Part shown: piece after piece, positions 2,024-57,638 of the stretch
Position numbering within the stretch: position 1 is the stretch's first letter
How the letters are laid out: each line of letters begins with the position of its first letter
Origin: Ignavibacteria bacterium
GTDB lineage: Bacteria; Bacteroidota; Ignavibacteria; SZUA-365
Direction of reading: 5' to 3'
Assembly (NCBI GenBank): GCA_016720835.1
Contig: JADKJW010000001.1
Span: 616,230-680,229, forward strand
DNA: 64,000 bases
Notes under the pieces: model-generated
Seen by the model: the letters and a program-made list of their open reading frames with translations, nothing else
Databases searched by the model: none
What the model was told of the DNA's origin: nothing
Program-made: the position numbers and the translations under genes

Positions 2024-3406
2024 CTACCGCGCCGCCAGGAAGTCCGACACGGCGGCGGCGCTGCGGTCGGCGGACTTCACGCAATCCCCCACCGATATGC
2101 CGCCGCGGTAGTTCGCGCAGAAGAAGAGTCCGGGCAGCGCCTTCTCGGCCGCCTCGACGCGCGCCATGCAGGCGGGATGCCCGAGCGTGTACTGCGGAAT
2201 GGCCTTCTTCCAGCGCGTGACGGCGCTGAAGACGGGCACGGGCGGCGTGCCGAGCAGGGCCGTCTGCTCGCGCAGCACGAGCGCCGCGACGTCGTCATCG
2301 GACAGTTCGGCGTTGGCGGGCTGCCGCGCGCCGCCGACGAAGGAGGTCAGCAGCGCCGTGCCTGCTTCGGTGCGGTCGCGAAACAGCGTGCTCGTGAATA
2401 TCGTGCCCAGGATCTCGCGCTTCTCGACGGCCGGAATCAGGAAGCCGAAACCGTCGAGCGGGTGCATGCCCGGCTGCGGCCGGAACACCGTGATCGCCAC
2501 GGCCACCGGCGGGTACGGGATGGCGCGCAGGGGCTCGGAGAGATCCGGCGCGAGTTCGCGGACCAGTTCCGCGGCATCGTGCGCGGGCGTCGCGAGGACG
2601 AGCGCGTCGCAGGTGTAGAGGCGCGGACCGTCGGCCGTGGCCGCCTCGAGCGCGAAGCCGCCGTCCTCGCGCGTCGTGATGCGCGCGACGCGGATGCCGG
2701 TCTCGACGCGATGCAGCGCGTCCCGCAACGCGATGGTGAGGGTTTCCATGCCGTCCGTGAACGAGAACATCCGCGCGCTGGTCTTGGACTCCTCGCCCCG
2801 GCGCTTGCGCTCCTTCGCGCCGCGGATCTGCCCCATGATGAGCCCGCCGTATTTCTGTTCGATCTCGAAGAGTTTCGGGAAGGCCGCCCGCACGCTCAGC
2901 GTTTCGGGATCGCCCGCGTACACGCCCGCGACGAAGGGATTGATGGCATAGTCGAGGAATTCCCTGCCAAGGCGTCGGCGCACGAATTCCGCCACCGTCT
3001 CGTTCGATTTCGGATCGCTTGCTCCGATAAAGGGCTCGCGGAACAGGCGGAGCTTCGCGCGCGCGGAAAACAGCGGCGTGCGGAGGAAGGCCCCCGGCGA
3101 CATCGGCAGCGGCATGAGCGTGCCGCCGCGCAGGATGAAGCGTTTCGCGGACGAGTCGTCCGCGTACATCTTGCGGTCCTCGATGCCGAGATCGCGGATC
3201 AATTGCGTGAGCAGCGGCGTGGTTTCGAGCGTGCTGTTCGGCCCGGCCTCGATGAGGCGGCCGTCCTGCCTCCAGCTGCGTATCGACCCTCCGGCACGGT
3301 CCGCCTTCTCGAGCACGAGCACATCGATACCCTGTTTCTGAAGCGCGTACGCCGCGGTGAGGCCGGAAATTCCGGCGCCGAGGATGATGGTGTCAGCGTG
3401 GGTCAT
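2024..3406 (-). CDS. hemY: FAD-dependent protoporphyrinogen oxidase (HemY/PPOX family)
   Basis: N-terminal dinucleotide-binding GAGISGL motif, about 460 aa, PPOX-like architecture. Sits inside the heme cluster. Confidence 0.8.
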
Positions 3407-30141: not shown

Positions 30142-30395
30142 AGGGAGAAGGAGAAGGTGAAGGTGCTCGCCCGCCGAAGCTCGCCATAGGCGAGCGCAGG
30201 TGGGAAGGGTGAATCGTGAGTGGTGAATCGTGATTAGCAAGATTATGACCGGGTGGGGACAAGCGTCTCGCTTGTCCGATTCACAGGAGTGGCGCCTGCC
30301 ATCATTCGTGGAAGATCTACCCGTTATTTCGGCCCGTCATGCTGAGCGAAGCGAAGCATCTGTCCATCCAGAGTCCAAGAATTCCCGAGGATGAA

Positions 30396-30492
30396 CGACT
30401 TCTGAGTTCTGCATTCTGAGTTCTGGATTCTGAGTTCTGGATTCTGAGTTCTGGATTCTGAGTTCTGGATTCTGAGTTCTGGATTCTGGATT
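30396..30492. repeat. tandem heptamer repeat (tctgagt/tctggat alternating, about 14 units)
   Basis: Directly visible as ttctgagttctggattctgagttctggat… between the radical SAM gene and the next ORF. Confidence 0.85.
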
Positions 30493-30509
30493 CTGAATTC
30501 CTGTTCTCC

Positions 30510-30989
30510 TCAATCCGCGAACTGCCTCAGTGTTTTTCGAAAGCGCTCGAAGACGGGTTTGAACTTGCGATACTCGTTGTTGTCGCGGCATTTCATCCCG
30601 GTGATGGTCTTCGTGCCGTGCTCTTCGTTCTCGACGTAGACGCGCATGTAGGAACGGTCTTTCGCGAGAATGGTCACGAGGCGGCCGACCGCGCCGTCGA
30701 GACTTTTCTGTTCCTTCACCGTGACGGTTTCGCGCGCGGTATCGGGACGGATGTCGCGCGCTTCGCCGCTCCACTGCGGAGAAAAGACGTAGAATTCCAC
30801 GTTCCCGTCGCGCGAGCGGAAAAACGCACTCTCCGCGCCCTTGCCCGTCTTGCTCGCCTGCGAGGCGCGAGCCTTGAATTCGGGCGGGTAGTCGATGGCG
30901 AACCACGCGCCGGTGAAGGTCTTCCAGGCCTTCTGCCCGGAAGCGGGGATGACGAGGAGGAGGGCGGCAATGATCAGCAAGCGGCGCAT
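30510..30989 (-). CDS. hypothetical secreted protein
   Basis: Signal peptide MRRLLIIAALLLVIPASG. No family recognised. Confidence 0.4.
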   Translation of the reverse strand: MRRLLIIAALLLVIPASGQKAWKTFTGAWFAIDYPPEFKARASQASKTGKGAESAFFRSRDGNVEFYVFSPQWSGEARDIRPDTARETVTVKEQKSLDGAVGRLVTILAKDRSYMRVYVENEEHGTKTITGMKCRDNNEYRKFKPVFERFRKTLRQFAD

Positions 30990-31307: not shown

Positions 31308-32693
31308 ATGTCACTCAGTTGGCTCATCCTTCTCATCGCCGTCGTGGCGATCGCGGCGCTCGTCTTCTGGATGATGAAACAGTACCGCAAAGTGGGGTCG
31401 AATGAAGTGCTCGTCGTGTCGGGTCGCAAAAGCGTGATCATGACGCCGGACGGCAGCAAGCAGGAGATCGGGTACCGCTTCCGCATCGGCGGCAGCTCCT
31501 TCGTCAATCCCTTCACGGAGCAGGCCAGCGCCATGCCCATCGAAGTGGTGAGCCTCACCATCCGCACCCCGGAGGTGCTGTCGAAGGACGGCATCCCCAT
31601 CGTCGCGGAATCGTCGGCGCAGGTGAAGATCGACGCGAACGAATACTCGATCTTCCTCGCGACGCAGAACTTCCTCACGGGAGGATCCGACGCCGTGCGC
31701 GAAGTGGCGCAGACCGTGCTCGAAGGCAAGGTGCGCGAGACCGTCGGCAGCATGACGGTGACCGAACTCTACCAGAACCGCGCCGAGTTCGGCGAGCGCG
31801 TGTACAACGCCGTGGTGCGCGACCTCGCGAGCATGGGCCTCGTGATGCTCTCCTTCGCGCTCAAGGACATCAGCGACACGCAGGGCTACCTCGACGCCCT
31901 CTCGAAGCCGATGGTGGCCGCCGCCAAGCGCGATGCCATCATCAAGCAGGCCGAGTACGATCGCGACGCCGCCATCTACGCCTCGCAGGCCAAGAAGGAA
32001 GCCGACATCGCGAAACTCACCGCCGACGCCGAAGTGGCGGGCCGCAACTGGCGGAACGAGGAACTGAAGGCCAATTCGCAGATCAACGTCAGCAAGGTGC
32101 GCGCGCAGGCCGACGTGCAGTACGAACTCGAGCGCTTCCGCCTCGCCCAGGAAGTGAAGCAGGAAGAGTACAAGGTCAAGATCATCGAGACGCAGGAACA
32201 GGCCAAGGTGCAGGTCGAAGAGATCAAGCGCAAGGAAAAGGAACTCGAAGCCACCATCATCAAGCCGGCCGAGGCGCGCAGGCTGCAGATCCAGTCCGAA
32301 GCCGAAGCCGACAGCTTCCGCGTCGTCAAGGAAGCCGAGGCGCGCTCCACCGCCCGCGCGAAGGAAAACGCCAGCGACTCCGACCGCATCCGCCTGCTCG
32401 GCGCCTCCGAAGCCGACGCCATGAAGGAAAAGGCCAAGGCCTACGAGCAGTACAACCAGGCCGCGATGTACCAGATGATCGTCGACATCCTCCCCGAACT
32501 CACGAAGAACATCGCCGAACCGCTCTCGCGCATCGACAAGATCACCCTCATCGGCGGCTCGGACGGCAAGCTCGGCACCAGCCAGATCACCGGCCAGATC
32601 GCCGACGTGCTCGCCCAGGTGCCCGAAGTCGTGAAGTCCCTCACCGGCGTCGACATCGCGAAATACCTGCGCGACAAGATGGGCAGCGAGTGA
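31308..32693 (+). CDS. flotillin / SPFH (band 7) domain protein
   Basis: N-terminal TM helix, SPFH domain, and a long Ala/Glu/Lys-rich coiled-coil flotillin region. Start at MSLSWLIL. Confidence 0.8.
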   Translation: MSLSWLILLIAVVAIAALVFWMMKQYRKVGSNEVLVVSGRKSVIMTPDGSKQEIGYRFRIGGSSFVNPFTEQASAMPIEVVSLTIRTPEVLSKDGIPIVAESSAQVKIDANEYSIFLATQNFLTGGSDAVREVAQTVLEGKVRETVGSMTVTELYQNRAEFGERVYNAVVRDLASMGLVMLSFALKDISDTQGYLDALSKPMVAAAKRDAIIKQAEYDRDAAIYASQAKKEADIAKLTADAEVAGRNWRNEELKANSQINVSKVRAQADVQYELERFRLAQEVKQEEYKVKIIETQEQAKVQVEEIKRKEKELEATIIKPAEARRLQIQSEAEADSFRVVKEAEARSTARAKENASDSDRIRLLGASEADAMKEKAKAYEQYNQAAMYQMIVDILPELTKNIAEPLSRIDKITLIGGSDGKLGTSQITGQIADVLAQVPEVVKSLTGVDIAKYLRDKMGSE

Positions 32694-32878
32694 GGGGATC
32701 GTGAATCGTGAATGGTGAATCGTGATCTACAACCGACATCATCACCACTCACGACGACACATCACCTCGTTCGATTCGCAATCACCCTGACCGTTCGCGT
32801 TTTTCGACTCACGACTCACGACTCACGATTCACCATTCCCGGACCGCCTTTCGCGGCGACAACAGGAGACCATCGAAC

Positions 32879-35215
32879 GTGACAGCAGATAGAATCAACC
32901 TCATCGGCACCTCCCCGACGCTGAAGGTGGACGCGAAGGCCAAGGCGATGCGCGAGGACGGCATCGACGTGGTCAACCTCAGCGTCGGCGAACCGGACTT
33001 CCCGACGCCGAAGCACATCAGCGATGCCGGACGCAAGGCCATCGACGACAACTTCACGAAGTACACCGCCTCCGAAGGCATCCTCCCGCTGCGCCAGGCC
33101 ATCGCCCGGCAGCTCGTGGAGGAGCATCAGCTCACGTACGACGCGTCCGAGATCATCGTCTCCAACGGCGCCAAGCACTCGCTCTACAACGTGATGATGG
33201 CGCTCGTGAACAGCGGCGACGAAGTGATCGTCCCTGCGCCGTACTGGGTCTCGTACCCCGAGATGGTGAAGCTCGCCGACGGCCGCCCGATCTTCGTGCA
33301 GACGAAGGAGGAGAACGGCTTCCGCCTTACGCCCGAACAGCTCCGCGAAGTGATCGGCGCGCGCACGCGGGCCGTGATCCTCAACAATCCGTCGAATCCC
33401 ACCGGCGGCGGCTACACGCGCGAGGAACTCGAAGCCCTCGCCGAAGTGATCGTCGAGGAGGACATCTACTGCATCGCCGACGAGATCTACGGCAAGCTGA
33501 TGTACGACTCGCGCAAGTTCACGCGCTTCGCCGCACTCGGCGCCGAGGTGAAGAAACGCACCATCACCATCGACGGCGTGTCGAAGGCCTACGCCATGAC
33601 CGGCTGGCGCATCGGCTGGGCGGCCGGACCGAAGGACGTCATCGCCGCGATGTCGAAGGTGCAGAGCCACGCGACGTCCAACCCCAGCTCCATCTCGCAG
33701 CGCGCCGCGCTCGAGGCGTACAAGGGGCCGCAGTACGAAGTCGCGAAGATGGCCTCGGAGTTCGAGAAGCGCCGCAACTTCGTCGTGTACAAACTGCAGG
33801 CCATGCCGGGCGTGTCCTGCCCCATGCCGCGCGGCGCCTTCTACGCCTTCCCGAACGTGTCGTCCTACTACGAGAAGGAATTCGACGGCGTGCCGATACG
33901 CAACAGCTACGGCATGGCCTACTACCTGCTGAAGCACGCGCACGTGGCCATCATCGCGGGCGAGGCCTTCGGGTCCGACGACTTCATCCGCATCAGCTAC
34001 GCCACCGGCATGCAGAATCTCGAGAAGGGCATGCAGCGCATCGCGGACGCCCTCGCCAAGCTGAAACCCGCGCCAAAACGCAAGCTCATCCGCCTCGCCA
34101 ATACCGAAACCGTGGTCAAACACGCCGCGCCCGTCGACGCCGAGGTCACGCCCGAACGGCGCGACGCCCTGGTGGCCGAGGCCGAGGCGCATCTGCACTA
34201 CAGCGCCTACCACGAGTGGAACGCCAACATCAACGGCATGATCGTGCAGCTCCGCACGAACATCGGACACCTGTACGACTTCTGGATGGAGAACTGGTAC
34301 CCCGCGCAGCTCGAGTCCGATATCGAACCGCACGGCATCATCTACGCGGTGGACGGCGTCACCGGACGCGAGCCGCACGCGTTCTACAACAGCGACACCA
34401 AGACGGGCGTGCTCTTCAACAGCGACCATTACGGCTCGCTGCGCTCCCTCGCCCTCGGCCTCACCACCGACGTGGCCGACCGCCTCTTCGACGTGCACGG
34501 CGTGCGCTGCATGTCGCTCGACATCAACGGGTCGGGCGCGCTCTTCATCGGCCCCTCGGGCACGAAGAAGACCGACCTGTTCTGGCGCCTCCTCGAGGAG
34601 GAACCCGCCGCGTCGCTGCACTCCACCGACTACGTGTTCCTCCGCCACGGCGGCGGCATCGCGGCGGCCGACAATCCCGAGCGCAAGCTCTACATCCCCA
34701 CCAACGCCGTCAGCGTGCACGAACCGCTCGCGCGCCTCTTCGACAAGTGCAAGTGCGAGAACGTGACGATGAAGGTGGAGGAGTGCCGCAACGAGACGCA
34801 CAAGATCACGGACTCCTGTCCCCTCAACAGCGGCGCGCCGTACAGCTACGACTGCGCGAAGAAGAGCCACGCGATGCTCGATCCCTACTGGATCGGCGGC
34901 ATGGCGCGGCACGTGAAGCGCATCGACGTGCGCCACGTCTTCATCATGCGCAACGACCCCGTCACCACCGCCGCGCAGCGCCTCGACGCCGAGGACGCCA
35001 TGCACGTGATCGAGAACGGCTATCCCGCCGGACTGCAGGGCGGCAAGCAGGAGGCCTTCTACAACGGGCACCTGCTCCTGAAATCTTCCGAACGCACAGA
35101 GCGCCAGAAACGCTCCTTCGCCAAACTCTTCGCGGCCGCCGAAGTCTGGCAGCTCAATGCCGGCACGGCGACGGTGACGGACATGGTGAAGAAGGTGCTG
35201 GAAGTGGTTCGGTGA
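32879..35215 (+). CDS. fusion protein: class-I aspartate/aromatic aminotransferase (N-terminal about 400 aa) plus a divergent PEP-carboxykinase-like P-loop domain (C-terminal about 380 aa)
   Basis: N-terminus has LSVGEPDFPTP, NPSNPTGG and the PLP-Lys motif SKAYAMTGWRIGW. The C-terminal region aligns by eye to the ATP-PEPCK core (…HGVRCMSLDINGSGALFIGPSGTKKT… vs [26 protein letters not shown]; …ENVTMK vs ENVTVR). Confidence 0.65.
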   Translation: MTADRINLIGTSPTLKVDAKAKAMREDGIDVVNLSVGEPDFPTPKHISDAGRKAIDDNFTKYTASEGILPLRQAIARQLVEEHQLTYDASEIIVSNGAKHSLYNVMMALVNSGDEVIVPAPYWVSYPEMVKLADGRPIFVQTKEENGFRLTPEQLREVIGARTRAVILNNPSNPTGGGYTREELEALAEVIVEEDIYCIADEIYGKLMYDSRKFTRFAALGAEVKKRTITIDGVSKAYAMTGWRIGWAAGPKDVIAAMSKVQSHATSNPSSISQRAALEAYKGPQYEVAKMASEFEKRRNFVVYKLQAMPGVSCPMPRGAFYAFPNVSSYYEKEFDGVPIRNSYGMAYYLLKHAHVAIIAGEAFGSDDFIRISYATGMQNLEKGMQRIADALAKLKPAPKRKLIRLANTETVVKHAAPVDAEVTPERRDALVAEAEAHLHYSAYHEWNANINGMIVQLRTNIGHLYDFWMENWYPAQLESDIEPHGIIYAVDGVTGREPHAFYNSDTKTGVLFNSDHYGSLRSLALGLTTDVADRLFDVHGVRCMSLDINGSGALFIGPSGTKKTDLFWRLLEEEPAASLHSTDYVFLRHGGGIAAADNPERKLYIPTNAVSVHEPLARLFDKCKCENVTMKVEECRNETHKITDSCPLNSGAPYSYDCAKKSHAMLDPYWIGGMARHVKRIDVRHVFIMRNDPVTTAAQRLDAEDAMHVIENGYPAGLQGGKQEAFYNGHLLLKSSERTERQKRSFAKLFAAAEVWQLNAGTATVTDMVKKVLEVVR

Positions 35216-35300
35216 TTCGTGAATCGTGAATGGTGAATCGTGAATCGTGGAAGGTGAATCGTGAATCGTGGAAGGTGGAAGGTGACAGGTGGAAGGTGAA
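35216..35300. repeat. simple repeats (gtgaatcgtgaat / ggtggaaggtga units)
   Basis: Directly visible low-complexity tandem units immediately after the fusion gene. Confidence 0.8.
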
Positions 35301-35713: not shown

Positions 35714-37564
35714 ATGGCTAAAGACAACTTCGACGTCCCCTACTACGACACATTCACCGCCGAGCTGCAGGACGCGCTCAAGGGTCCGAACATCAAGGAA
35801 GTGGACCTGAAGTGGCTGCGGCCGCGCGCGGAGAGTTTCGCGCAGCAGACGAAGCACGGCTCGCACGTGTGGCATTCCATCCAGAGCTCGCGCCTGGCCG
35901 CGAAGACGGTGTACCTCGGCACGGAGAAGATCCGCCTGCCCATCACCTCGCCCGATCAGGACAAGCTGATCAAGGGCGCGCCGGACGAGCTCAAGAAGGT
36001 GCTGAACTGGATGAAGACGCTGCCCTTCGTGAAGCTCACGCGGCAGATGGGCGACAACGCCGAGTTCAACCCCACCTGCACCATCTACACCTGCGTGAAG
36101 GACCCGAAGAACGTGCGCCTGCCTTACATGTGGGGCAACCTGCTCTTCGATCCGGCGAAGCGTCCGGGACCGAACATCACGATGATCCACATCCCCGAGG
36201 AGCACACCACCCGGCAGCAGATCCTCACCATGCCGGAGTACAACCTCAACATCTGCCTCGGCTCCGACTACCTCGGCGAGGAGAAGAAGGGCTTCCTGCG
36301 CCAGGCCATGTGGCTTGCGGACGAAAAGGGCATGCTCGGACTGCACGCGGGCACCAAGGTGGTGATCGCGCGCGACGCCCGCACCAACGAACTCAAGAAG
36401 TACGGCGTCATCCTCTTCGGCATGACCGCCACGGGCAAGTCCACCTGGAGCTGCCACCAGCTCATGATGGACAACAAGCGCGGCGAGATGACCTACGTGT
36501 CGCAGGACGACATCTGCTTCCTGAAGGACGACGGCTCGGCCTACGGCAGCGAGGCGAACTACTACGTGAAGACCGACGTGGTGAAGGACCAGCAGGAGGC
36601 CATGTGGCACGCGCTGGTGGACAAGAGCGCGCTGCTCGAGAACGTGATGGTGACGGCCGACGGCACCATCGAGTGGCTGGACGAGAGCATGTGCGGCAAC
36701 GGCCGCGCCGTGGTGCGCAAGGACAAGCTCGCCGTGGAGCGCGACGGCAAGCTGCTGCCGATCATGGCCAAGACCATCAACCTGCCCTCGCTCGACGAGA
36801 TGGACGGGCTGATCTTCGCCTTCATCACGCGCCGCAACACCATCATGCCCTTCTCGCAGCAGCTCACGCCCGAGCAGGGCGCGCTCGCGTACCTGTTCGG
36901 CGAGTCCACGCTCAGCTTCGCCGCCAATCCGCTCAAGGCGGGCGAGTCCGTGCGCATCGTCGGCACCGACGACTTCATCGTGGGCAGCCGCGCGCGCAAG
37001 GTGAACCGCTTCTACGACATCGCGATGAAGCTCAACGCGAAGTACCCGGGCAAGGTGCGCTTCATGATCTACAACACGGGCGGCATGGGCGAGATCATCG
37101 AGACGCACGAAGAGAACGGCAAGACCGTGAAGAAGATGGTGCGCAAGACCGACCGCGTGCCGCTGGACCTGATGGCCGCAATCCAGCGCGGCGACCTGCG
37201 CGGCACCAACAAGTACGAGAAGGGCGTGCTCGGCACCATGTCCATCCAGGAGGCCGACGGCCGCACCATGCCCGAGTGGGACGTGCATCACCTCTACTCG
37301 CAGGAGCAGATCGACGCCTACGTGAAGGAAATCATCGCCGGCCGCCGCGCCTTCCTCGAGGAAGTGTCGCGCGAGGGCCTGCGCCCCGAGATCATCGCCG
37401 CCGCAGAGCGCGGCTTCCGTTCCATGGGCGAGCGCCGCTTCACCCCCGCCACCGTGCCCGTGGGCATGTCCTTCGCGCCCTCCGCTCCCGATCCGCGCAT
37501 CATCGTGAAAAACGACGAGCCGGTGGCACGGCCGAAGAAGCCGGGGGTGTGGCGCTGGCGCTGA
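35714..37564 (+). CDS. pckA: phosphoenolpyruvate carboxykinase (ATP)-like
   Basis: EEKKGF…GLHAGT…ILFGMTATGKST…QDDICFLKDDGS…NYY aligns to the E. coli PckA GEMKKG…MHCSAN…[11 protein letters not shown]…GDDEHGWDDDG…CYAK block. Kinase-2-like FMIYNTGGMGE matches LVNTGWNG. At 616 aa it is longer than canonical PckA (540 aa). Confidence 0.7.
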   Translation: MAKDNFDVPYYDTFTAELQDALKGPNIKEVDLKWLRPRAESFAQQTKHGSHVWHSIQSSRLAAKTVYLGTEKIRLPITSPDQDKLIKGAPDELKKVLNWMKTLPFVKLTRQMGDNAEFNPTCTIYTCVKDPKNVRLPYMWGNLLFDPAKRPGPNITMIHIPEEHTTRQQILTMPEYNLNICLGSDYLGEEKKGFLRQAMWLADEKGMLGLHAGTKVVIARDARTNELKKYGVILFGMTATGKSTWSCHQLMMDNKRGEMTYVSQDDICFLKDDGSAYGSEANYYVKTDVVKDQQEAMWHALVDKSALLENVMVTADGTIEWLDESMCGNGRAVVRKDKLAVERDGKLLPIMAKTINLPSLDEMDGLIFAFITRRNTIMPFSQQLTPEQGALAYLFGESTLSFAANPLKAGESVRIVGTDDFIVGSRARKVNRFYDIAMKLNAKYPGKVRFMIYNTGGMGEIIETHEENGKTVKKMVRKTDRVPLDLMAAIQRGDLRGTNKYEKGVLGTMSIQEADGRTMPEWDVHHLYSQEQIDAYVKEIIAGRRAFLEEVSREGLRPEIIAAAERGFRSMGERRFTPATVPVGMSFAPSAPDPRIIVKNDEPVARPKKPGVWRWR

Positions 37565-37643
37565 ACGTGGATTCGTTGGTATACTGAAGGCGCGAGAATC
37601 ACCCTTCGCGCCTTCTCTATTTCCACCATCGAGTACTGATGCC

Positions 37644-38180
37644 ATGACCACCTGCATCGCTCTCCTCCGCGGCATCAATGTCGGAGGAAAACATTCCCTG
37701 CCGATGAAGACGCTCGCCGCCATACTCGAAGACCTCGGCGCGAAGAGCGTCAGGACATACATTCAGAGCGGCAACGCGGTGTTTCACTTCGCGGAGAAGA
37801 ACACGTCGAAGCTTGCCAAGCTCCTGGCGGAAGAAATCCACAAGCGGCAGGGCTTCGAGCCCGCGGTGCTCATCCTGACGCGCGAGGCGCTCGTGAAGGC
37901 GATGGCCGCGAATCCCTTCCCCGAAGCGGAGGCCGATGCGACCGGCCTGCACCTGGGTTTTCTCGCCTCCGTGCCGAAGTCCCCGAACCTGGAGAAGCTC
38001 GAGAGTCTGCGCGGCGCGAGCGAGCGCTTTCAACTTCTCGGCAGCGTGTTCTATCTCCACGCACCCGACGGCGTGGGCAGATCCAAGCTCGCCGCGGCGT
38101 CCGAGAAGCTCCTCGGCGTGCCGATGACGGACCGGAACTGGAGAACGGTGTACGCGCTGCGGGATATGGCAGTGGAATGA
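37644..38180 (+). CDS. DUF1697 family protein
   Basis: N-terminal ALLRGINVGGK signature of DUF1697. Confidence 0.6.
   Translation: MTTCIALLRGINVGGKHSLPMKTLAAILEDLGAKSVRTYIQSGNAVFHFAEKNTSKLAKLLAEEIHKRQGFEPAVLILTREALVKAMAANPFPEAEADATGLHLGFLASVPKSPNLEKLESLRGASERFQLLGSVFYLHAPDGVGRSKLAAASEKLLGVPMTDRNWRTVYALRDMAVE
38064..38170. repeat. direct repeat copy A (3' end of the DUF1697 gene)
   Basis: About 90% identical to 38908-39013. The two copies flank the DUF4160/DUF2442 cassette. Confidence 0.8.
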
Positions 38181-38381
38181 TGGCGCATCCTGATCGATTC
38201 CGCAGCCCGCGACGATGCATCGATGGGCAGGGTCGTCGCGTCTCAGGTGTTCCACGTTCCGATCGGAAAATCCATGAATGGAGATCAGTGATGTTCTTCC
38301 TTGCATTCCGCTCGTGGCGGTGATAGTTTCGATGCAGAGCGCTGACCAGAAGACCACCATTGTAGAACCCGGGAACTGCGC

Positions 38382-38648
38382 ATGCCCACCATCTCCATGT
38401 TTTTTGGCATCATTATCCGGATGTACTATTCGCCAGGCGAACATCCCCCTGCGCATTTCCATGCCTACTACGGTGAATTCAAGGCGACCGTTGATATCGC
38501 CACGTGTGAGATCCTGCAGGGAGACCTTCCGGGCAGGCAAACCAAGCTCGTGCTGGCTTGGGCGGAGTTGCACAAGGAAGAATTGATGGCAGACTGGTCG
38601 CTGATGGGTCGAGGCGAGGAACCGTTTAAAATCCAGCCGTTGCAGTAG
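38382..38648 (+). CDS. DUF4160 domain protein
   Basis: N-terminal ISMFFGIIIRMYxxxxEHxPxHFHAxYGE signature. Confidence 0.6.
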   Translation: MPTISMFFGIIIRMYYSPGEHPPAHFHAYYGEFKATVDIATCEILQGDLPGRQTKLVLAWAELHKEELMADWSLMGRGEEPFKIQPLQ

Positions 38649-38659
38649 GAGACAGTGAG

Positions 38660-38905
38660 ATGCCCCCTGCAGTGACGAGTGTCGTGGCAAGAGACGATTT
38701 CACACTTCATGTGGTTTTCGAAAACGGCGAGAGTGGTGTCCTCGACATGAAGCCGTATCTGGATTTCGGCGTGTTCCGCAGCATCGGTACCCTTGCGGCA
38801 TTCAAATCCGTGCGTGTGGCCTTCGATACCGTCGAATGGGGTAATGGTATCGATCTGGATCCGGAATTTGTGCACACCGCCTGTGTACTGCATCCCAAAC
38901 ACTGA
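38660..38905 (+). CDS. DUF2442 domain protein
   Basis: 81 aa, typical DUF2442 size/pattern (…LxVxFxNGExxxxDxxPYL…). Consistently paired with DUF4160. Confidence 0.55.
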   Translation: MPPAVTSVVARDDFTLHVVFENGESGVLDMKPYLDFGVFRSIGTLAAFKSVRVAFDTVEWGNGIDLDPEFVHTACVLHPKH

Positions 38906-38907
38906 AG

Positions 38908-39013
38908 CCGCCGGACGGCGTGGGCAGGTCCAGGCTCGCCGCGGCATCGGAGAAGCTGCCCGGCGTGCCTATGACGGACCGGAACTGGAGAACGGTGTGC
39001 GCGCTCAGGGACA
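38908..39013. repeat. direct repeat copy B (duplicated DUF1697 3' end)
   Basis: Pairs with 38064-38170. Retains an in-frame …DRNWRTVCALRDM… reading. Confidence 0.8.
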
Positions 39014-39081
39014 TGACCGACAGCCGATGACAATCTTTCCCCATCTGCGTCATCTGCGTCATCTGCGGATACATCTGCGGA

Positions 39082-39546
39082 ATGAAGACCAACGCCATCC
39101 GCATCCTTGAATCGCTGCGCATCGCGCACGAAGCCATCGAGTACGAAGTCTCGGAAGACGAGATCGACGCGATGTCCGTCGCGCGCAAGATCGGCGCGGA
39201 TCCCGACTGCGTGTTCAAGACCCTCGTGGCGCGCGGGGACAGGACGGGCGTTTGCGTGTTCGTGATTCCGGGTCCCGCCGAGCTGCACCTGAAGAAGGCC
39301 GCGGCGGCGAGCGGCAACAAGGCCGTGGAGATGATACACCTGAAGGAGCTGCTCCCGCTCACCGGCTACATCCGCGGCGGCTGCTCTCCTGTCGGCATGA
39401 AGAAGCAGTACCCCACCTTCATCGACGAGACCGCGCAGCTCTTCGACGCGATACACGTCTCGGCCGGCGTGCGCGGCATGCAGGTGCGGCTGTCGCCGGG
39501 GGAACTTCTCGGGGCGGTCGGTGGGGTATATGCGGAATTGATTTGA
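39082..39546 (+). CDS. ybaK: Cys-tRNA(Pro)/Cys-tRNA(Cys) deacylase YbaK
   Basis: 154 aa. YbaK/EbsC pattern (…VFKTLVxxGDxxGxxVxVIPG…LxLKKAA…SG…). Confidence 0.7.
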   Translation: MKTNAIRILESLRIAHEAIEYEVSEDEIDAMSVARKIGADPDCVFKTLVARGDRTGVCVFVIPGPAELHLKKAAAASGNKAVEMIHLKELLPLTGYIRGGCSPVGMKKQYPTFIDETAQLFDAIHVSAGVRGMQVRLSPGELLGAVGGVYAELI

Positions 39547-39805
39547 AAGCGGAGACTGGGGACTCGGGACTGGGGACTGGGGAGAAAAAGGAGTGATGGA
39601 GTGGTGGAGTGGATTCTTCACCCGCTCATGGAATTTTCCACGGCGCTCGCAGGCTGAACGGCCAGATCCATCCCTTCGGCTTCGCTCAGGGCAAGCTTCT
39701 GCGCATCAGGATGACCGGCCCTTTTCCATTGTGCTCTGCCTTTCACCTCTCACCCTTCACCCTGCACCATTCACCCTTCTTCCTTCATAATTCATCCTTC
39801 AACAT

Positions 39806-40237
39806 TCACCCTTCCACAGAGAGCAGCTCGATCTCGAAGGTCAGCGCCTTGCCGGCGAGGGGGTGATTCGCGTCGAGGGTGACGTGTGTCGGGGAGAGTT
39901 CGGTGACGCGGACGGGGACGCTGCTGCCGTCGTCCTGGTGTATGGTGAGTTCCATGCCGATCTCGGGCACGATCTCGGGCGGAATGTCGCTGCGTTTCGC
40001 GCGGAGCACGTACTGCTCGCTGTACTCGCCGTAGGCCTGTGCTGCGGGGATGGTGACGGTGACCGTCCCGCCGACCTCGAGGCCCATGACGGCCGCATCA
40101 AAGCCTGGGATGACCTCGCCCTTGCCGAGCGTGAACGCGAACGGCGCGCCGCCGCGCGAGGAATCGAAGACGGAGCCGTCATCGAGCGAGCCGGTGTAAT
40201 GCACGCTGACGCGATGTCCTTTGGATGCTGCTGCCAC
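39806..40237 (-). CDS. FKBP-type peptidyl-prolyl cis-trans isomerase
   Basis: VSVHYTGSLDDGSVFDSS…GxxEVIPGFDAAVxGLEVG pattern of the FKBP fold. Confidence 0.7.
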   Translation of the reverse strand: MAAASKGHRVSVHYTGSLDDGSVFDSSRGGAPFAFTLGKGEVIPGFDAAVMGLEVGGTVTVTIPAAQAYGEYSEQYVLRAKRSDIPPEIVPEIGMELTIHQDDGSSVPVRVTELSPTHVTLDANHPLAGKALTFEIELLSVEG

Positions 40238-40342: not shown

Positions 40343-40744
40343 TTATTTATTGCGGGGACGGGACGGGTCGATGACGAAGCGTTCGTATTCGAGGCCGGGG
40401 TAATGTCCAAAGTTGAGCAGGAGCCCCAGGCGACACCGCGACGCATGGAGAGCATTGAGTACCTGCGCGCGGTGATCCGACGCCAGTTTGGACAGCGCTT
40501 TCAACTCCACCAGGATCGTGTCGTAGCACAGGAAATCCGTGCGATACCCGACTTCGAGCACGTGATCGTGATACCTGATTTCGAGCCGCACTTCCCGTTC
40601 GAAGGGTATGCCCCGTTCGGTGAATTCGATCGCGAGGCATTGCTGATACACCGCCTCGTAGAACCCGCAGCCCATCTCGGCATACACCGCGAACGCCGCG
40701 CCCATGATCGCGTAGCTCTCTTCCTTGAAAACAATCTCGCCCAT
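40343..40744 (-). CDS. GxxExxY family protein (PD-(D/E)XK-like)
   Basis: Contains the MGCGFYEAVYQ motif and YRTDFLCYDTILVELKA core typical of the family. Confidence 0.65.
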   Translation of the reverse strand: MGEIVFKEESYAIMGAAFAVYAEMGCGFYEAVYQQCLAIEFTERGIPFEREVRLEIRYHDHVLEVGYRTDFLCYDTILVELKALSKLASDHRAQVLNALHASRCRLGLLLNFGHYPGLEYERFVIDPSRPRNK

Positions 40745-57232: not shown

Positions 57233-57339
57233 GGCTTCCTGCACCAGTCTAATGAAATGTTGGAGTGTTGGAGTGTTGGAGTGAATGCCGATGATGCAGG
57301 AAAAAGCCCCGAAGGGGCGGCATTCCCCAACCCAGGGCC

Positions 57340-57500
57340 CGCGGCCGGGGGGGGGGGACGGCCCAAACCGGGGGGCCGGGGCGGGGGGGGGGGAAGAAAA
57401 AAGGGGGGAGGGAGGGGGGGGGGGGGGGGGGGGAGGGGGGGGGGAGGGGGGGGGGGGGGGGGGGGGGGGGGGAGGGGGGGGGGGGGGGGGGGGGGGGGCG
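57340..57500. repeat. about 160-bp near-homopolymeric poly-G tract flanked by inverted 20-mers
   Basis: Directly visible. Flanked by ggcattccccaacccagggc (57323-57342) and its reverse complement (57518-57537). Confidence 0.9.
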
Positions 57501-57638
57501 TGGGGCCCCAGGGCTCACGCCCTGGGTTGGGGAATGCCGTCCGCCTCCGGCGGACTCACCCACGTTGCGCGTTGTGCCGCCGCCCCAGGGCTCACGCCCT
57601 GGGTTGGGGAACAGTGGAGAGTCAAGGCTGGCAAGGTC

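Follow-up and report, generated by a model that had tools for sequence, protein, structure and literature searches.

A DhiTA-type toxin-antitoxin cassette between diverged copies of a DUF1697 gene end in an Ignavibacteria bacterium

Introduction

In the genome of an Ignavibacteria bacterium, a cassette with a DUF4160/DUF2442 gene pair has been inserted within about 0-10 nt past the stop codon of a DUF1697 gene, leaving both neighbouring genes intact. Judged by its protein domains and gene order, the pair is a type II toxin-antitoxin cassette of the DhiTA family, about 0.73 kb in size, and it is bracketed by two diverged copies of the DUF1697 gene end, A and B. Because the copies differ mainly at synonymous positions, and their silent divergence is at least that between the two lineages in which the locus was found, they look like two alleles joined by recombination, and not like a target-site duplication in which one copy is decaying. 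The origin that we favour, with an even chance of being correct, is a single-crossover (Campbell-type) insertion-duplication from a diverged allele, and not transposition.

Toxin-antitoxin pairs are among the most mobile of prokaryotic genes, and their arrival outside plasmids, prophages and integrons is rarely visible. Here, the filled and the empty site are both at hand. A duplicated and allelically diverged gene end, with no recombinase beside it, points to homologous recombination as a route by which such cassettes travel between related strains.

The repeat and the interval that it brackets

The sequence examined, referred to here as the window, is a stretch of 64 kb. A repeat search identified copies A and B as an ungapped direct repeat of 105 nt with 89% identity (cores in Table 1), and a MAFFT alignment agrees; the two starts are 847 nt apart. 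The initial annotation had described a repeat of the DUF1697 3' end at about 90% identity, with a second copy still in frame as a DUF1697 C-terminus, around a lower-GC interval of about 740 bp that carries the DUF4160-DUF2442 pair, and the alignment bears this out. The bracketed DNA measures 742 nt between the cores, and copy B translates in frame as PDGVGRSRLAAASEKLPGVPMTDRNWRTVCALRDMTDSR*, where the asterisk is its own stop codon. The blastn E-value of the A/B pair is 2e-36, and chance similarity is therefore excluded. This is the sole repeat pair of its kind to bracket genes within the window, and neither further DUF1697 fragments nor other copies of the cassette were found elsewhere in it.

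Homology between A and B is slightly longer than the core and runs through both stop codons (Table 1). The last four to five codons are strongly diverged, and A is shorter by one codon. Copy A corresponds to the last 35 codons of the DUF1697 open reading frame plus its tail (about 39 codons with the tail). Copy B, which starts 3 nt past the stop codon of DUF2442, runs on without a break into the native intergenic region. The longest block identical in both copies is 28 nt (38124-38151).

Table 1. Features of the filled site, in window coordinates.
Feature	Position	Strand	Remarks
DUF1697 gene, intact, 178 aa	37644..38180	+	Pfam PF08002, E = 1.9e-40, full model covered
Repeat copy A	38062..38180 (core 38064-38168)	+	Functional DUF1697 3' end; tail AVE, stop 38178-38180
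Insert leader, 201 nt, GC 0.567, no ORF	38181..38381	+	No detectable homologue
DUF4160 gene, 88 aa, DhiT-like toxin	38382..38648	+	Pfam PF13711, E = 7.7e-24, above gathering score
DUF2442 gene, 81 aa, DhiA-like antitoxin	38660..38905	+	Pfam PF10387, E = 4.6e-12
Repeat copy B	38909..39030 (core 38911-39015)	+	Displaced DUF1697 3' end; own in-frame stop 39028-39030
Native DUF1697-ybaK intergenic region (heptamer repeats) and ybaK	39031..39546	+	Downstream target-site border; colinear with L082 and L163-L166
ybaK (tRNA_edit)	39082-39546	+	Pfam PF04073, E = 8.9e-23; downstream of copy B

The DUF1697 protein is 100% identical to MBL0174151.1 in NCBI, from an Ignavibacteria metagenome-assembled genome, and 87% identical to protein P0002 of the lineage with the empty site; exact-protein look-ups with ybaK and PEPCK returned no match. 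The surroundings of the insert are of a housekeeping character within about 8 kb, and include PEPCK, DUF1697, ybaK, FKBP, PDDEXK_3 and an aminotransferase, among others.

The toxin-antitoxin pair

The two cassette genes are co-oriented and are separated by a spacer of 11 nt. The DUF4160 protein has every residue that is invariant in its family, and among 80 related loci, the DUF2442 gene directly follows the DUF4160 gene in 78, the other two being cut by contig ends. The DhiTA pair of Dickeya dadantii 3937 shares both Pfam domains and their order with this one, likewise in small co-oriented genes a few nucleotides apart. The label "TA-like" of the initial annotation can thus be made specific, since DUF4160/DUF2442 is the DhiTA family of type II toxin-antitoxin systems (PMC8198452), which is described as a toxin-antitoxin pair in further work as well (PMC12724237, PMC12065111). 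In Dickeya, the toxin stops growth unless neutralised by the antitoxin (PMC8198452), while a pair of the family on a Thermus plasmid has an effect on persistence (PMC12724237). For the pair in the window, toxicity is predicted. The published Dickeya pair is described without flanking target duplications.

The cassette is compositionally foreign, because its GC content and third-position GC content (GC3) are below those of its surroundings. The insert (38181-38908) has a GC content of 0.548, compared with 0.639 and 0.632 in the flanks, and the two cassette genes have a GC3 of 0.69 and 0.59, compared with 0.83-0.96 in host genes.

Homology to other DhiTA cassettes starts only from the ATG at 38382, and the leader upstream of it had no blastn match elsewhere in the window or among loci L001-L170, L081 excepted. 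The promoter of the cassette presumably lies within this leader; a sigma-70 scan is uninformative for this phylum. Readings of the leader as a structured RNA, an intron or a retron were rejected, since an Rfam search (E <= 1) returned nothing relevant and the fold of the leader DNA was not significant (z = 0.05).

The filled and the empty site

Comparison with related genomes had been proposed in the initial annotation as a way to find the site without the cassette, with DUF1697 directly before ybaK. Such a site was found in five contigs of a sister lineage (L082 and L163-L166), with about 87% protein identity to the window, where ybaK follows DUF1697 after 40 nt, with one copy of the repeat and no cassette. 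In the alignment, positions 6-646 of L082 match window positions 37530-38170 (89.4%), and positions 538-1750 match 38909-40084 (85%). Insertion of the cassette is the derived state, because all five contigs have the same synteny (PEPCK-DUF1697-ybaK-FKBP-PDDEXK_3) with a single repeat and no cassette.

Five assemblies (L081 and L167-L170), built from other samples and sequencing runs, have the filled arrangement. L081 spans the gene, copy A, the cassette and copy B, while L167 spans the cassette, copy B and ybaK, and one of the five is a Logan contig assembled at k=31 that spans both copies. Four of the five differ from the window by one to four substitutions. The fifth, L169, is 97% identical, and has a 3-nt deletion and a mosaic patch inside the cassette (38636-38719), which indicates that the cassette does recombine.

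Since the source is a metagenome-assembled genome, and at least two samples (ERZ965218 and ERZ27280359) contain both lineages, the filled site could in principle be a chimera assembled from a strain with the cassette and a strain without it. This is very improbable. The junctions are reproduced in the five other assemblies, which come from different runs and assemblers, and the site is therefore not an assembly artefact. Moreover, A and B share no more than 28 identical bases in a row, too few to confuse assembly graphs of k=31-141, and copy B is only 86% identical to the co-occurring L082 lineage, hence not its allele.

Divergence of the two copies

The core copies differ by nine synonymous and three non-synonymous changes (dS 0.445, dN 0.039, dN/dS 0.09), so that the statistics of substitution rest on 12 differences. 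Between the window and L082, dS is 0.315 in the body of DUF1697 and 0.209 in ybaK. If B had been free of selection since a duplication in situ, 59% of the changes would be expected to be non-synonymous; three of the 12 were seen (P = 0.017; 0.02 by simulation). Pooling with the analogous repeat at L139, an unrelated locus, gives P = 0.0015 against neutral decay.

Polarising the changes with L082 gives three to copy A (two synonymous and C>Y) and six to copy B (four synonymous, plus K>R, and L>P within EKLLGVP, a motif that is conserved otherwise). The four synonymous and two non-synonymous changes of B give only a weak rejection of neutrality (P = 0.04). Each copy has the other as its nearest relative, with about 9-10 states common to both against L082, the next lineage. 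An attempt to assign A or B to the donor failed, as each is closest to the other and the polarised changes interleave along the repeat. Neither copy is assignable to donor or resident, because only two lineages are present in the databases, where no donor allele was found.

Origin of the insertion

A transposon or insertion sequence was rejected as the vehicle. The insert contains no transposase or recombinase and no open reading frame beyond the two toxin-antitoxin genes, and it lacks terminal inverted repeats, the longest inverted match between its ends being 7 nt. A transposon that makes a short target duplication, identical at first, was also rejected, since the repeat here is 105-130 nt long, 89% identical and biased towards synonymous differences.

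In the insertion-duplication that we favour, DNA from a related strain, in which the cassette already lay next to a copy of this gene end, would have entered the cell. One homologous crossover, probably in or near the 28-nt identical block, would then integrate the cassette and duplicate the gene end, so that A completes DUF1697 and B is left as a relic beside ybaK; no staggered cut by a transposase or integrase would be involved. Addiction to the toxin-antitoxin pair may select against loss of the cassette by recombination between the repeats. Such recombination would release a circle made of the cassette and one repeat, able to re-enter the locus in naive relatives; a circular form was not observed.

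Campbell-type insertion-duplication, in which a circle with an internal homologous fragment integrates by a single crossover, as suicide plasmids do, is familiar chiefly from plasmids and as a laboratory tool, and the resulting copies may differ if donor and recipient differ. The window resembles it, in that one contiguous target segment, present once in the empty site of relatives, occurs as a direct duplication on either side of the insert. We know of no description of a natural toxin-antitoxin cassette of 0.7 kb that uses this route. Several points weigh against it. Firstly, a stretch of 105-130 nt that is 89% identical would be an inefficient substrate for homologous recombination. Secondly, the cassette must already have been joined to a DUF1697 end by some earlier event. 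Thirdly, the mutual closeness of A and B also fits an old duplication in situ.

A duplication in situ is the alternative that we regard as possible, though less probable. A long target duplication of about 105-130 bp would have arisen at the locus, for example by a widely staggered break with fill-in or by replication template switching of the MMBIR type, after which B decayed while A stayed under selection. One event would then explain everything. A and B are nearest relatives, the L>P change in B damages a conserved motif, and the amount of per-site change along the B branch (6-9/105) fits the synonymous change along the A branch. Repeats of similar length are found at other loci of the family. 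However, the synonymous bias argues against this origin, as does the dS of 0.445 between A and B, which is not below the lineage values of 0.21-0.32. The duplication would therefore need to date back almost to the split of the lineages, and yet the cassette is still compositionally foreign. To our knowledge, no bacterial enzyme makes target duplications of about 100 bp.

An improbable origin is the remnant of a site-specific integrative element that entered at the DUF1697 3' end and brought a replacement gene end, with its integrase and other parts since deleted and the addictive pair left behind. This model predicts what is seen at the site, that is, a direct repeat at a 3' end, a restored reading frame and diverged, mostly synonymous copies, and the repeat motif LGVPMTDRNW, whose nucleotide sequence is highly conserved between phyla, would be a good attachment site. 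Against it, no recombinase gene or fragment was found in the bracketed 742 nt or in their surroundings within about 8 kb, none of 80 DUF1697 loci from other genomes has a displaced 3' end within 5 kb downstream, the leader has no homologue, and the same footprint occurs elsewhere at different targets. DUF1697 3' ends were thus rejected as a recurrent target; a single one of the 80 loci (L079) has an extra fragment, which lies upstream of the gene and represents a different architecture.

The nearest parallel for such an element is in icd, for which phage 21 and e14 supply a substitute 3' end. As there, the insert in the window sits at the 3' end of a protein gene that is kept intact by a diverged copy, with the displaced native end downstream. 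In contrast to phage 21 and e14, which are 15-40 kb long and encode their own integrase, the insert is 0.73 kb long and has no recombinase. The integration of prophages 21 and e14 in icd is cited in PMC12803456.

Related cassettes at other loci

The initial annotation had read the arrangement as a mobile or recombined cassette that duplicated its target. Its mobility is upheld by cassettes of the same kind in unrelated flanks, whereas duplication of the target in situ fits poorly with differences that are mainly synonymous and at the level of lineage divergence. Two homologous cassettes were found at unrelated metagenome loci. At L150, the flanking repeat of about 103-115 nt (91% identity) reaches from the 3' end of a gene for a class II aminoacyl-tRNA synthetase across the intergenic region into the start of a MiaB-like gene. 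At L139, the repeat of 86 nt (91%) is the first 29 codons of hicB. A further repeat-flanked unit, L180 (context look-ups P0151 and P0188), is not a clean new case. Tight flanking repeats occur at 10 of 45 DhiTA loci, compared with 6/147 and 1/320 in controls.

In the window, L150, L139 and L180, the repeats are 86-130 nt long and the right one starts 0-45 nt past the DUF2442 stop codon. This regular distance may point to a defined end of the cassette, for which simple homologous recombination gives no explanation. It is tempting to suppose that DhiTA cassettes are minimal mobile units that insert with target duplications of about 85-130 bp by an undescribed mechanism, with the window, L150, L139 and perhaps L180 as independent instances, although we consider this rather unlikely. 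Either the DUF4160 protein or the cassette end at the DUF2442 stop codon might be involved, and the neighbouring genes would be kept intact. A structural model of DUF4160 revealed no HUH or recombinase-like relative. If the long duplications prove to be made de novo, an undescribed mechanism of insertion would be indicated.

Integron gene cassettes are known to carry toxin-antitoxin modules in sedentary chromosomal integrons (PMC13108822, PMC4889954). The cassette in the window is similarly small, bounded by direct repeats and, as proposed above, promoter-bearing; unlike theirs, its repeats are host coding sequence and attC core sites are absent. A regular-expression search of both strands of 37901-39300 found no RYYYAAC or GTTRRRY core, an Rfam search of the insert had no match, and there is neither a repeat array at the locus nor an integrase nearby. 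What lies past DUF2442 is coding sequence of DUF1697, a single copy of which is present at the empty site. An integron cassette with attC-type flanking repeats was therefore rejected for the window, where it is scarcely credible, and this origin stands only for other members of the family.

Among those members, the L147 cassette lies between attC-like sites: an R'' element, GCTTAAC, comes right after the DUF2442 stop codon, and an R' element, GTTAAGC, follows about 60 nt later. The last bases of the upstream attC-like copy at L147 are GTTAGAC, and homology to the L097 cassette starts at precisely this point; the order of cassettes is shuffled between the two loci. Members bounded by attC-like sites link integron-borne with "free" chromosomal copies of the cassette. 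Several other loci are repeat-delimited arrays. Repeats on either side of the cassette at such other places are attC-like or REP-like.

Layout of the Insert

In the window, the DUF4160 and DUF2442 genes lie between two direct copies of the 3' end of a DUF1697 gene. The initial annotation had described a direct repeat of about 90% identity, and a repeat search with alignment gives 105 nt at 89% identity, ungapped (blastn, E = 2e-36), with weak homology reaching past both stop codons (approximately 38062-38180 versus 38909-39030). Three nucleotides separate the DUF2442 stop codon from copy B, which, as had also been proposed, remains open as an alternative DUF1697 C-terminus. The low-GC interval said to carry the gene pair is likewise real: the GC content of the insert is 0.548 versus approximately 0.64 in the flanks, and GC3 is 0.59-0.69 in the cassette genes versus 0.83-0.96 in host genes.

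Features of the insertion site and other repeats in the window
Feature	Position	Remarks
DUF1697 gene	37644-38180	Intact; copy A is its 3' end
Copy A	38064-38168	
Leader		201 nt, between copy A and DUF4160
DUF4160 gene	38382-38648	Between the copies
DUF2442 gene	38660-38905	Between the copies
Copy B	38911-39015	In frame up to its own stop codon, 39028-39030
Intergenic tandem repeats	30386-30511, 30193-30242, 32685-32727, 35197-35294, 39040-39080, 39554-39581, 39739-39815	

A Discrete Toxin-Antitoxin Cassette

Judged by sequence, the pair is a new member of DhiTA, a known family of type II toxin-antitoxin systems; DUF4160 is the predicted toxin and DUF2442 the predicted antitoxin. DhiTA has been proven functional in Dickeya dadantii (PMC8198452), a DUF4160/DUF2442 pair raises the persistence of a Thermus plasmid (PMC12724237), and the Menshen antiphage system has DUF4160 among its effector domains (PMC12065111). 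DUF2442 lies directly 3' of DUF4160 in 78 of 80 metagenome loci with DUF4160 homologues (59-83% identity); the other two end at contig edges.

Between many pairs of loci, similarity (82-94% identity) is limited to 510-700 nt that start 20-90 nt before the DUF4160 ATG and end about 20 nt beyond the DUF2442 stop codon, and the surrounding sequences are otherwise unrelated. This marks the gene pair as a discrete cassette, and the idea of a small mobile or recombined unit holds. Homology of the window cassette to the others is confined to the stretch from the ATG at 38382 to about 38871, and no homologue of the leader was found among loci L001-L080 and L082-L170 or in the rest of the window. In L169, another assembly carrying the insert, 20 substitutions and a 3-nt deletion are clustered at the DUF4160/DUF2442 junction (approximately 570-660, window 38636-38719) while the rest is nearly identical. 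This patch implies recombination with another cassette allele, so the cassette does exchange sequence in this way.

Empty and Filled Sites

An Ignavibacteria MAG encodes an identical DUF1697 protein (MBL0174151.1), and the sole other close relatives form a cluster at 87% protein identity (P0002, P0121-P0123). In all five contigs of this sister lineage (L082, L163-L166), the end of PEPCK is followed by DUF1697, a 40-nt spacer, and ybaK; the cassette is absent and the repeat is single-copy. Four of the five continue into FKBP, and the longest also reaches the PDDEXK_3 gene. In L082, positions 6-646 match window 37530-38170 at 89.4%, and the overlapping positions 538-1750 match window 38909-40084 at 85%. 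By this alignment the sister-lineage arrangement is the empty site that was to be sought in relatives, which makes the cassette a derived insertion in the window lineage.

A chimeric assembly could be suspected, given that the source is a MAG and that cassette-bearing and empty lineages occur together in at least two samples. The filled arrangement, however, was also found in five assemblies (L081, L167-L170) made from other samples and sequencing runs. Four of them differ from the window by 1-4 substitutions; the fifth (L169) is 97% identical and has the 3-nt deletion and the mosaic patch. A k=31 contig among the five covers the gene, copy A, the cassette, and copy B, and another runs from the cassette through copy B into ybaK. 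Such independent junctions exclude an assembly artefact, and a chimera is hardly credible.

In two samples (L168 and L169), copy A carries a C>A change at 38122 that would turn the conserved DUF1697 motif GVPMTDRNW into GVQM, and a synonymous change at 38133; DUF1697 may be under relaxed constraint in these strains. Beyond the sister lineage, the best DUF1697 homologues (approximately 70-73% identity) are spread over many phyla (Acidimicrobiia, Gamma- and Betaproteobacteria, Acidobacteriota, Methanothrix). Neither ybaK nor PEPCK is present in any of 80 loci with a DUF1697 homologue, and DUF1697 itself seems to move horizontally. An Acidobacteriota MAG (L079, 2166-2270) has a decayed DUF1697 C-terminal fragment with 80% nucleotide identity to the 3' end of the intact gene in the same MAG. 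The fragment sits 2.7 kb upstream of that gene and adjoins a DNA methylase, an architecture unlike that of the window.

Divergence between the Two Copies

Over a 35-codon core, copies A and B differ at 12 sites, nine synonymous and three non-synonymous (K/R, L/P, Y/C), giving dS = 0.445 and dN = 0.039 (Nei-Gojobori). Between the window and L082, dS is 0.315 in the DUF1697 body and 0.209 in ybaK; silent divergence between the copies is thus at least as great as that between the lineages. If copy B had gone untranslated, as a relic, ever since a duplication in situ, approximately 59% of differences should be non-synonymous, versus the 3 of 12 observed (binomial P = 0.017; simulation, 0.02). Most of the divergence has, on this codon pattern, been filtered by protein-level selection.

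When changes are polarised with L082, approximately 9-10 sites are shared by A and B and differ from L082, six are private to B (four synonymous, two non-synonymous), three are private to A (two synonymous, one non-synonymous), and three third-position sites are ambiguous. The B branch alone departs from neutrality at P = 0.04, and one of its changes, L>P within the conserved EKLLGVP motif, is a sign of decay. The two copies are each other's closest relatives, with the L082 lineage next for both. The numbers are small and suggestive of two alleles from closely related lineages, joined recently, with slight decay in B. A long target duplication made in situ, with B decaying afterwards, would account for the sister relationship of the copies in a single event; it matches the codon-position pattern poorly and requires an unknown mechanism, and we regard it as a real, minor possibility. 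The claim that the cassette duplicated its target stands for the duplication, whose origin in situ looks less likely given nine synonymous differences in 12.

Similar Footprints at Other DhiTA Loci

Tight flanking direct repeats are present at 10 of 45 testable DhiTA loci, versus 6/147 random 520-nt units in the same loci and 1/320 in unrelated loci. They fall into three classes: attC-like repeats or arrays, REP-like hairpins, and true target duplications.

In the first class, R'' (GCTTAAC) of L147 directly follows the DUF2442 stop codon, with R' (GTTAAGC) some 60 nt further on; the upstream copy ends in GTTAGAC, precisely where homology to the L097 cassette begins, and L097 has a MazEF cassette on the opposite side. 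Such an arrangement is that of an integron gene cassette, and L125/126, L128, L130, L142, and L162 are also repeat-delimited arrays. Such family members between attC-like sites invite the same reading for the window insert, where no attC core site was found in 37901-39300, and it is extremely improbable there. In two soda-lake contigs, a 982-nt block with group II intron D1-D4 matches (RF02005; L125 4620-4824, L128 2927-3136) lies downstream of the DhiTA cassette in one and upstream in the other, which suggests shuffled cassette arrays with an intron. In L121, a 747-nt insertion relative to L122 (127-873 versus 1566-1570), just upstream of the cassette and with a 5-nt junction overlap, looks like a small transposon-type insertion. 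The REP-like hairpins (L161, L137) adjoin an IS200-like Y1 transposase.

The third class, target duplications comparable to that in the window, includes L150, L139, and perhaps L180. In L150, the repeated segment (approximately 103-115 nt, 91%) takes in the final 13 codons of a gene for a class II aminoacyl-tRNA synthetase, the adjoining intergenic stretch, and the beginning of a MiaB-like gene; the DUF2442 stop codon falls within it. In L139, the repeat consists of the opening 29 codons of a hicB on the minus strand (86 nt, 91%), with approximately 5.5 synonymous and 3.5 non-synonymous differences (Nei-Gojobori path averaging); pooled with the window, the synonymous bias has P = 0.0015 against a model with one copy neutral. 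Both neighbouring genes are kept intact by the duplication in the window, L150, and L139. L180 has a 107-nt, 77% direct repeat (1620-1717 and 2989-3095) around a 1.27-kb unit of PRiA4_ORF3, a 29-aa ORF, and DhiTA; its first 36 nt fold into a perfect 9-bp hairpin (GCCGGTTTA...TAAACCGGC), which accompanies the unit in Chlorobium limicola (L174).

Mechanism of Insertion

The insert contains no further ORF, Rfam family, or significant fold. Terminal inverted repeats are absent, with 7 nt as the longest inverted match of one end to the other, and the neighbours over about 8 kb are ordinary genes. One gene of the PDDEXK_3 (GxxExxY-type) nuclease family, on the minus strand at 40343-40744, falls in a low-GC patch (0.51-0.58); it is conserved at the corresponding position in the sister lineage (L163) and is therefore not a recent arrival. 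A decayed integrative element of the phage 21 or e14-icd type would predict the window footprint, but any trace of a recombinase is absent and related cassettes occupy other targets, which leaves this origin distinctly unlikely.

Because a contiguous target segment is directly duplicated, the copies are allele-like, and no recombinase is encoded, the insertion may well have arisen by a single homologous crossover (Campbell-type insertion-duplication), to which, as the likeliest origin, we give about an even chance. A molecule bearing the cassette and one copy of the target segment would have recombined once with the chromosome, plausibly within the longest identical block of A and B (28 nt, 38124-38151). 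Recombination between the repeats would release such a circle and restore the gene, and toxin-antitoxin addiction would counter-select this loss. The founding event that placed the cassette beside DUF1697 falls outside this model, as does the regular position of the right-hand repeat, whose distance from the DUF2442 stop codon is 0-45 nt in all cases. A dedicated insertion mechanism making duplications of about 100 bp is doubtful. The initial observation and its general interpretation are thus upheld, except that an apparently recombinational, allelic duplication takes the place of a transpositional one. A recombinase-free footprint with a duplicated gene end at three unrelated loci represents a modest new variant of insertion-duplication or integrative footprints.

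Other Repeats in the Window

A tract of about 180 nt at 57334-57512, nearly all G with scattered A, was reported as a repeat family; it could be a poly-G artefact of sequencing or assembly, or else an unusual insert of low complexity. In many intergenic regions there are short tandem repeats whose units are 7 or 14 nt long, such as TTCTGAGTTCTGGA, GTGAATC, CATCTGCG, GACTGGG, and CCTTCAC. L082 has similar repeats at homologous positions, in copy numbers that differ from those of the window.
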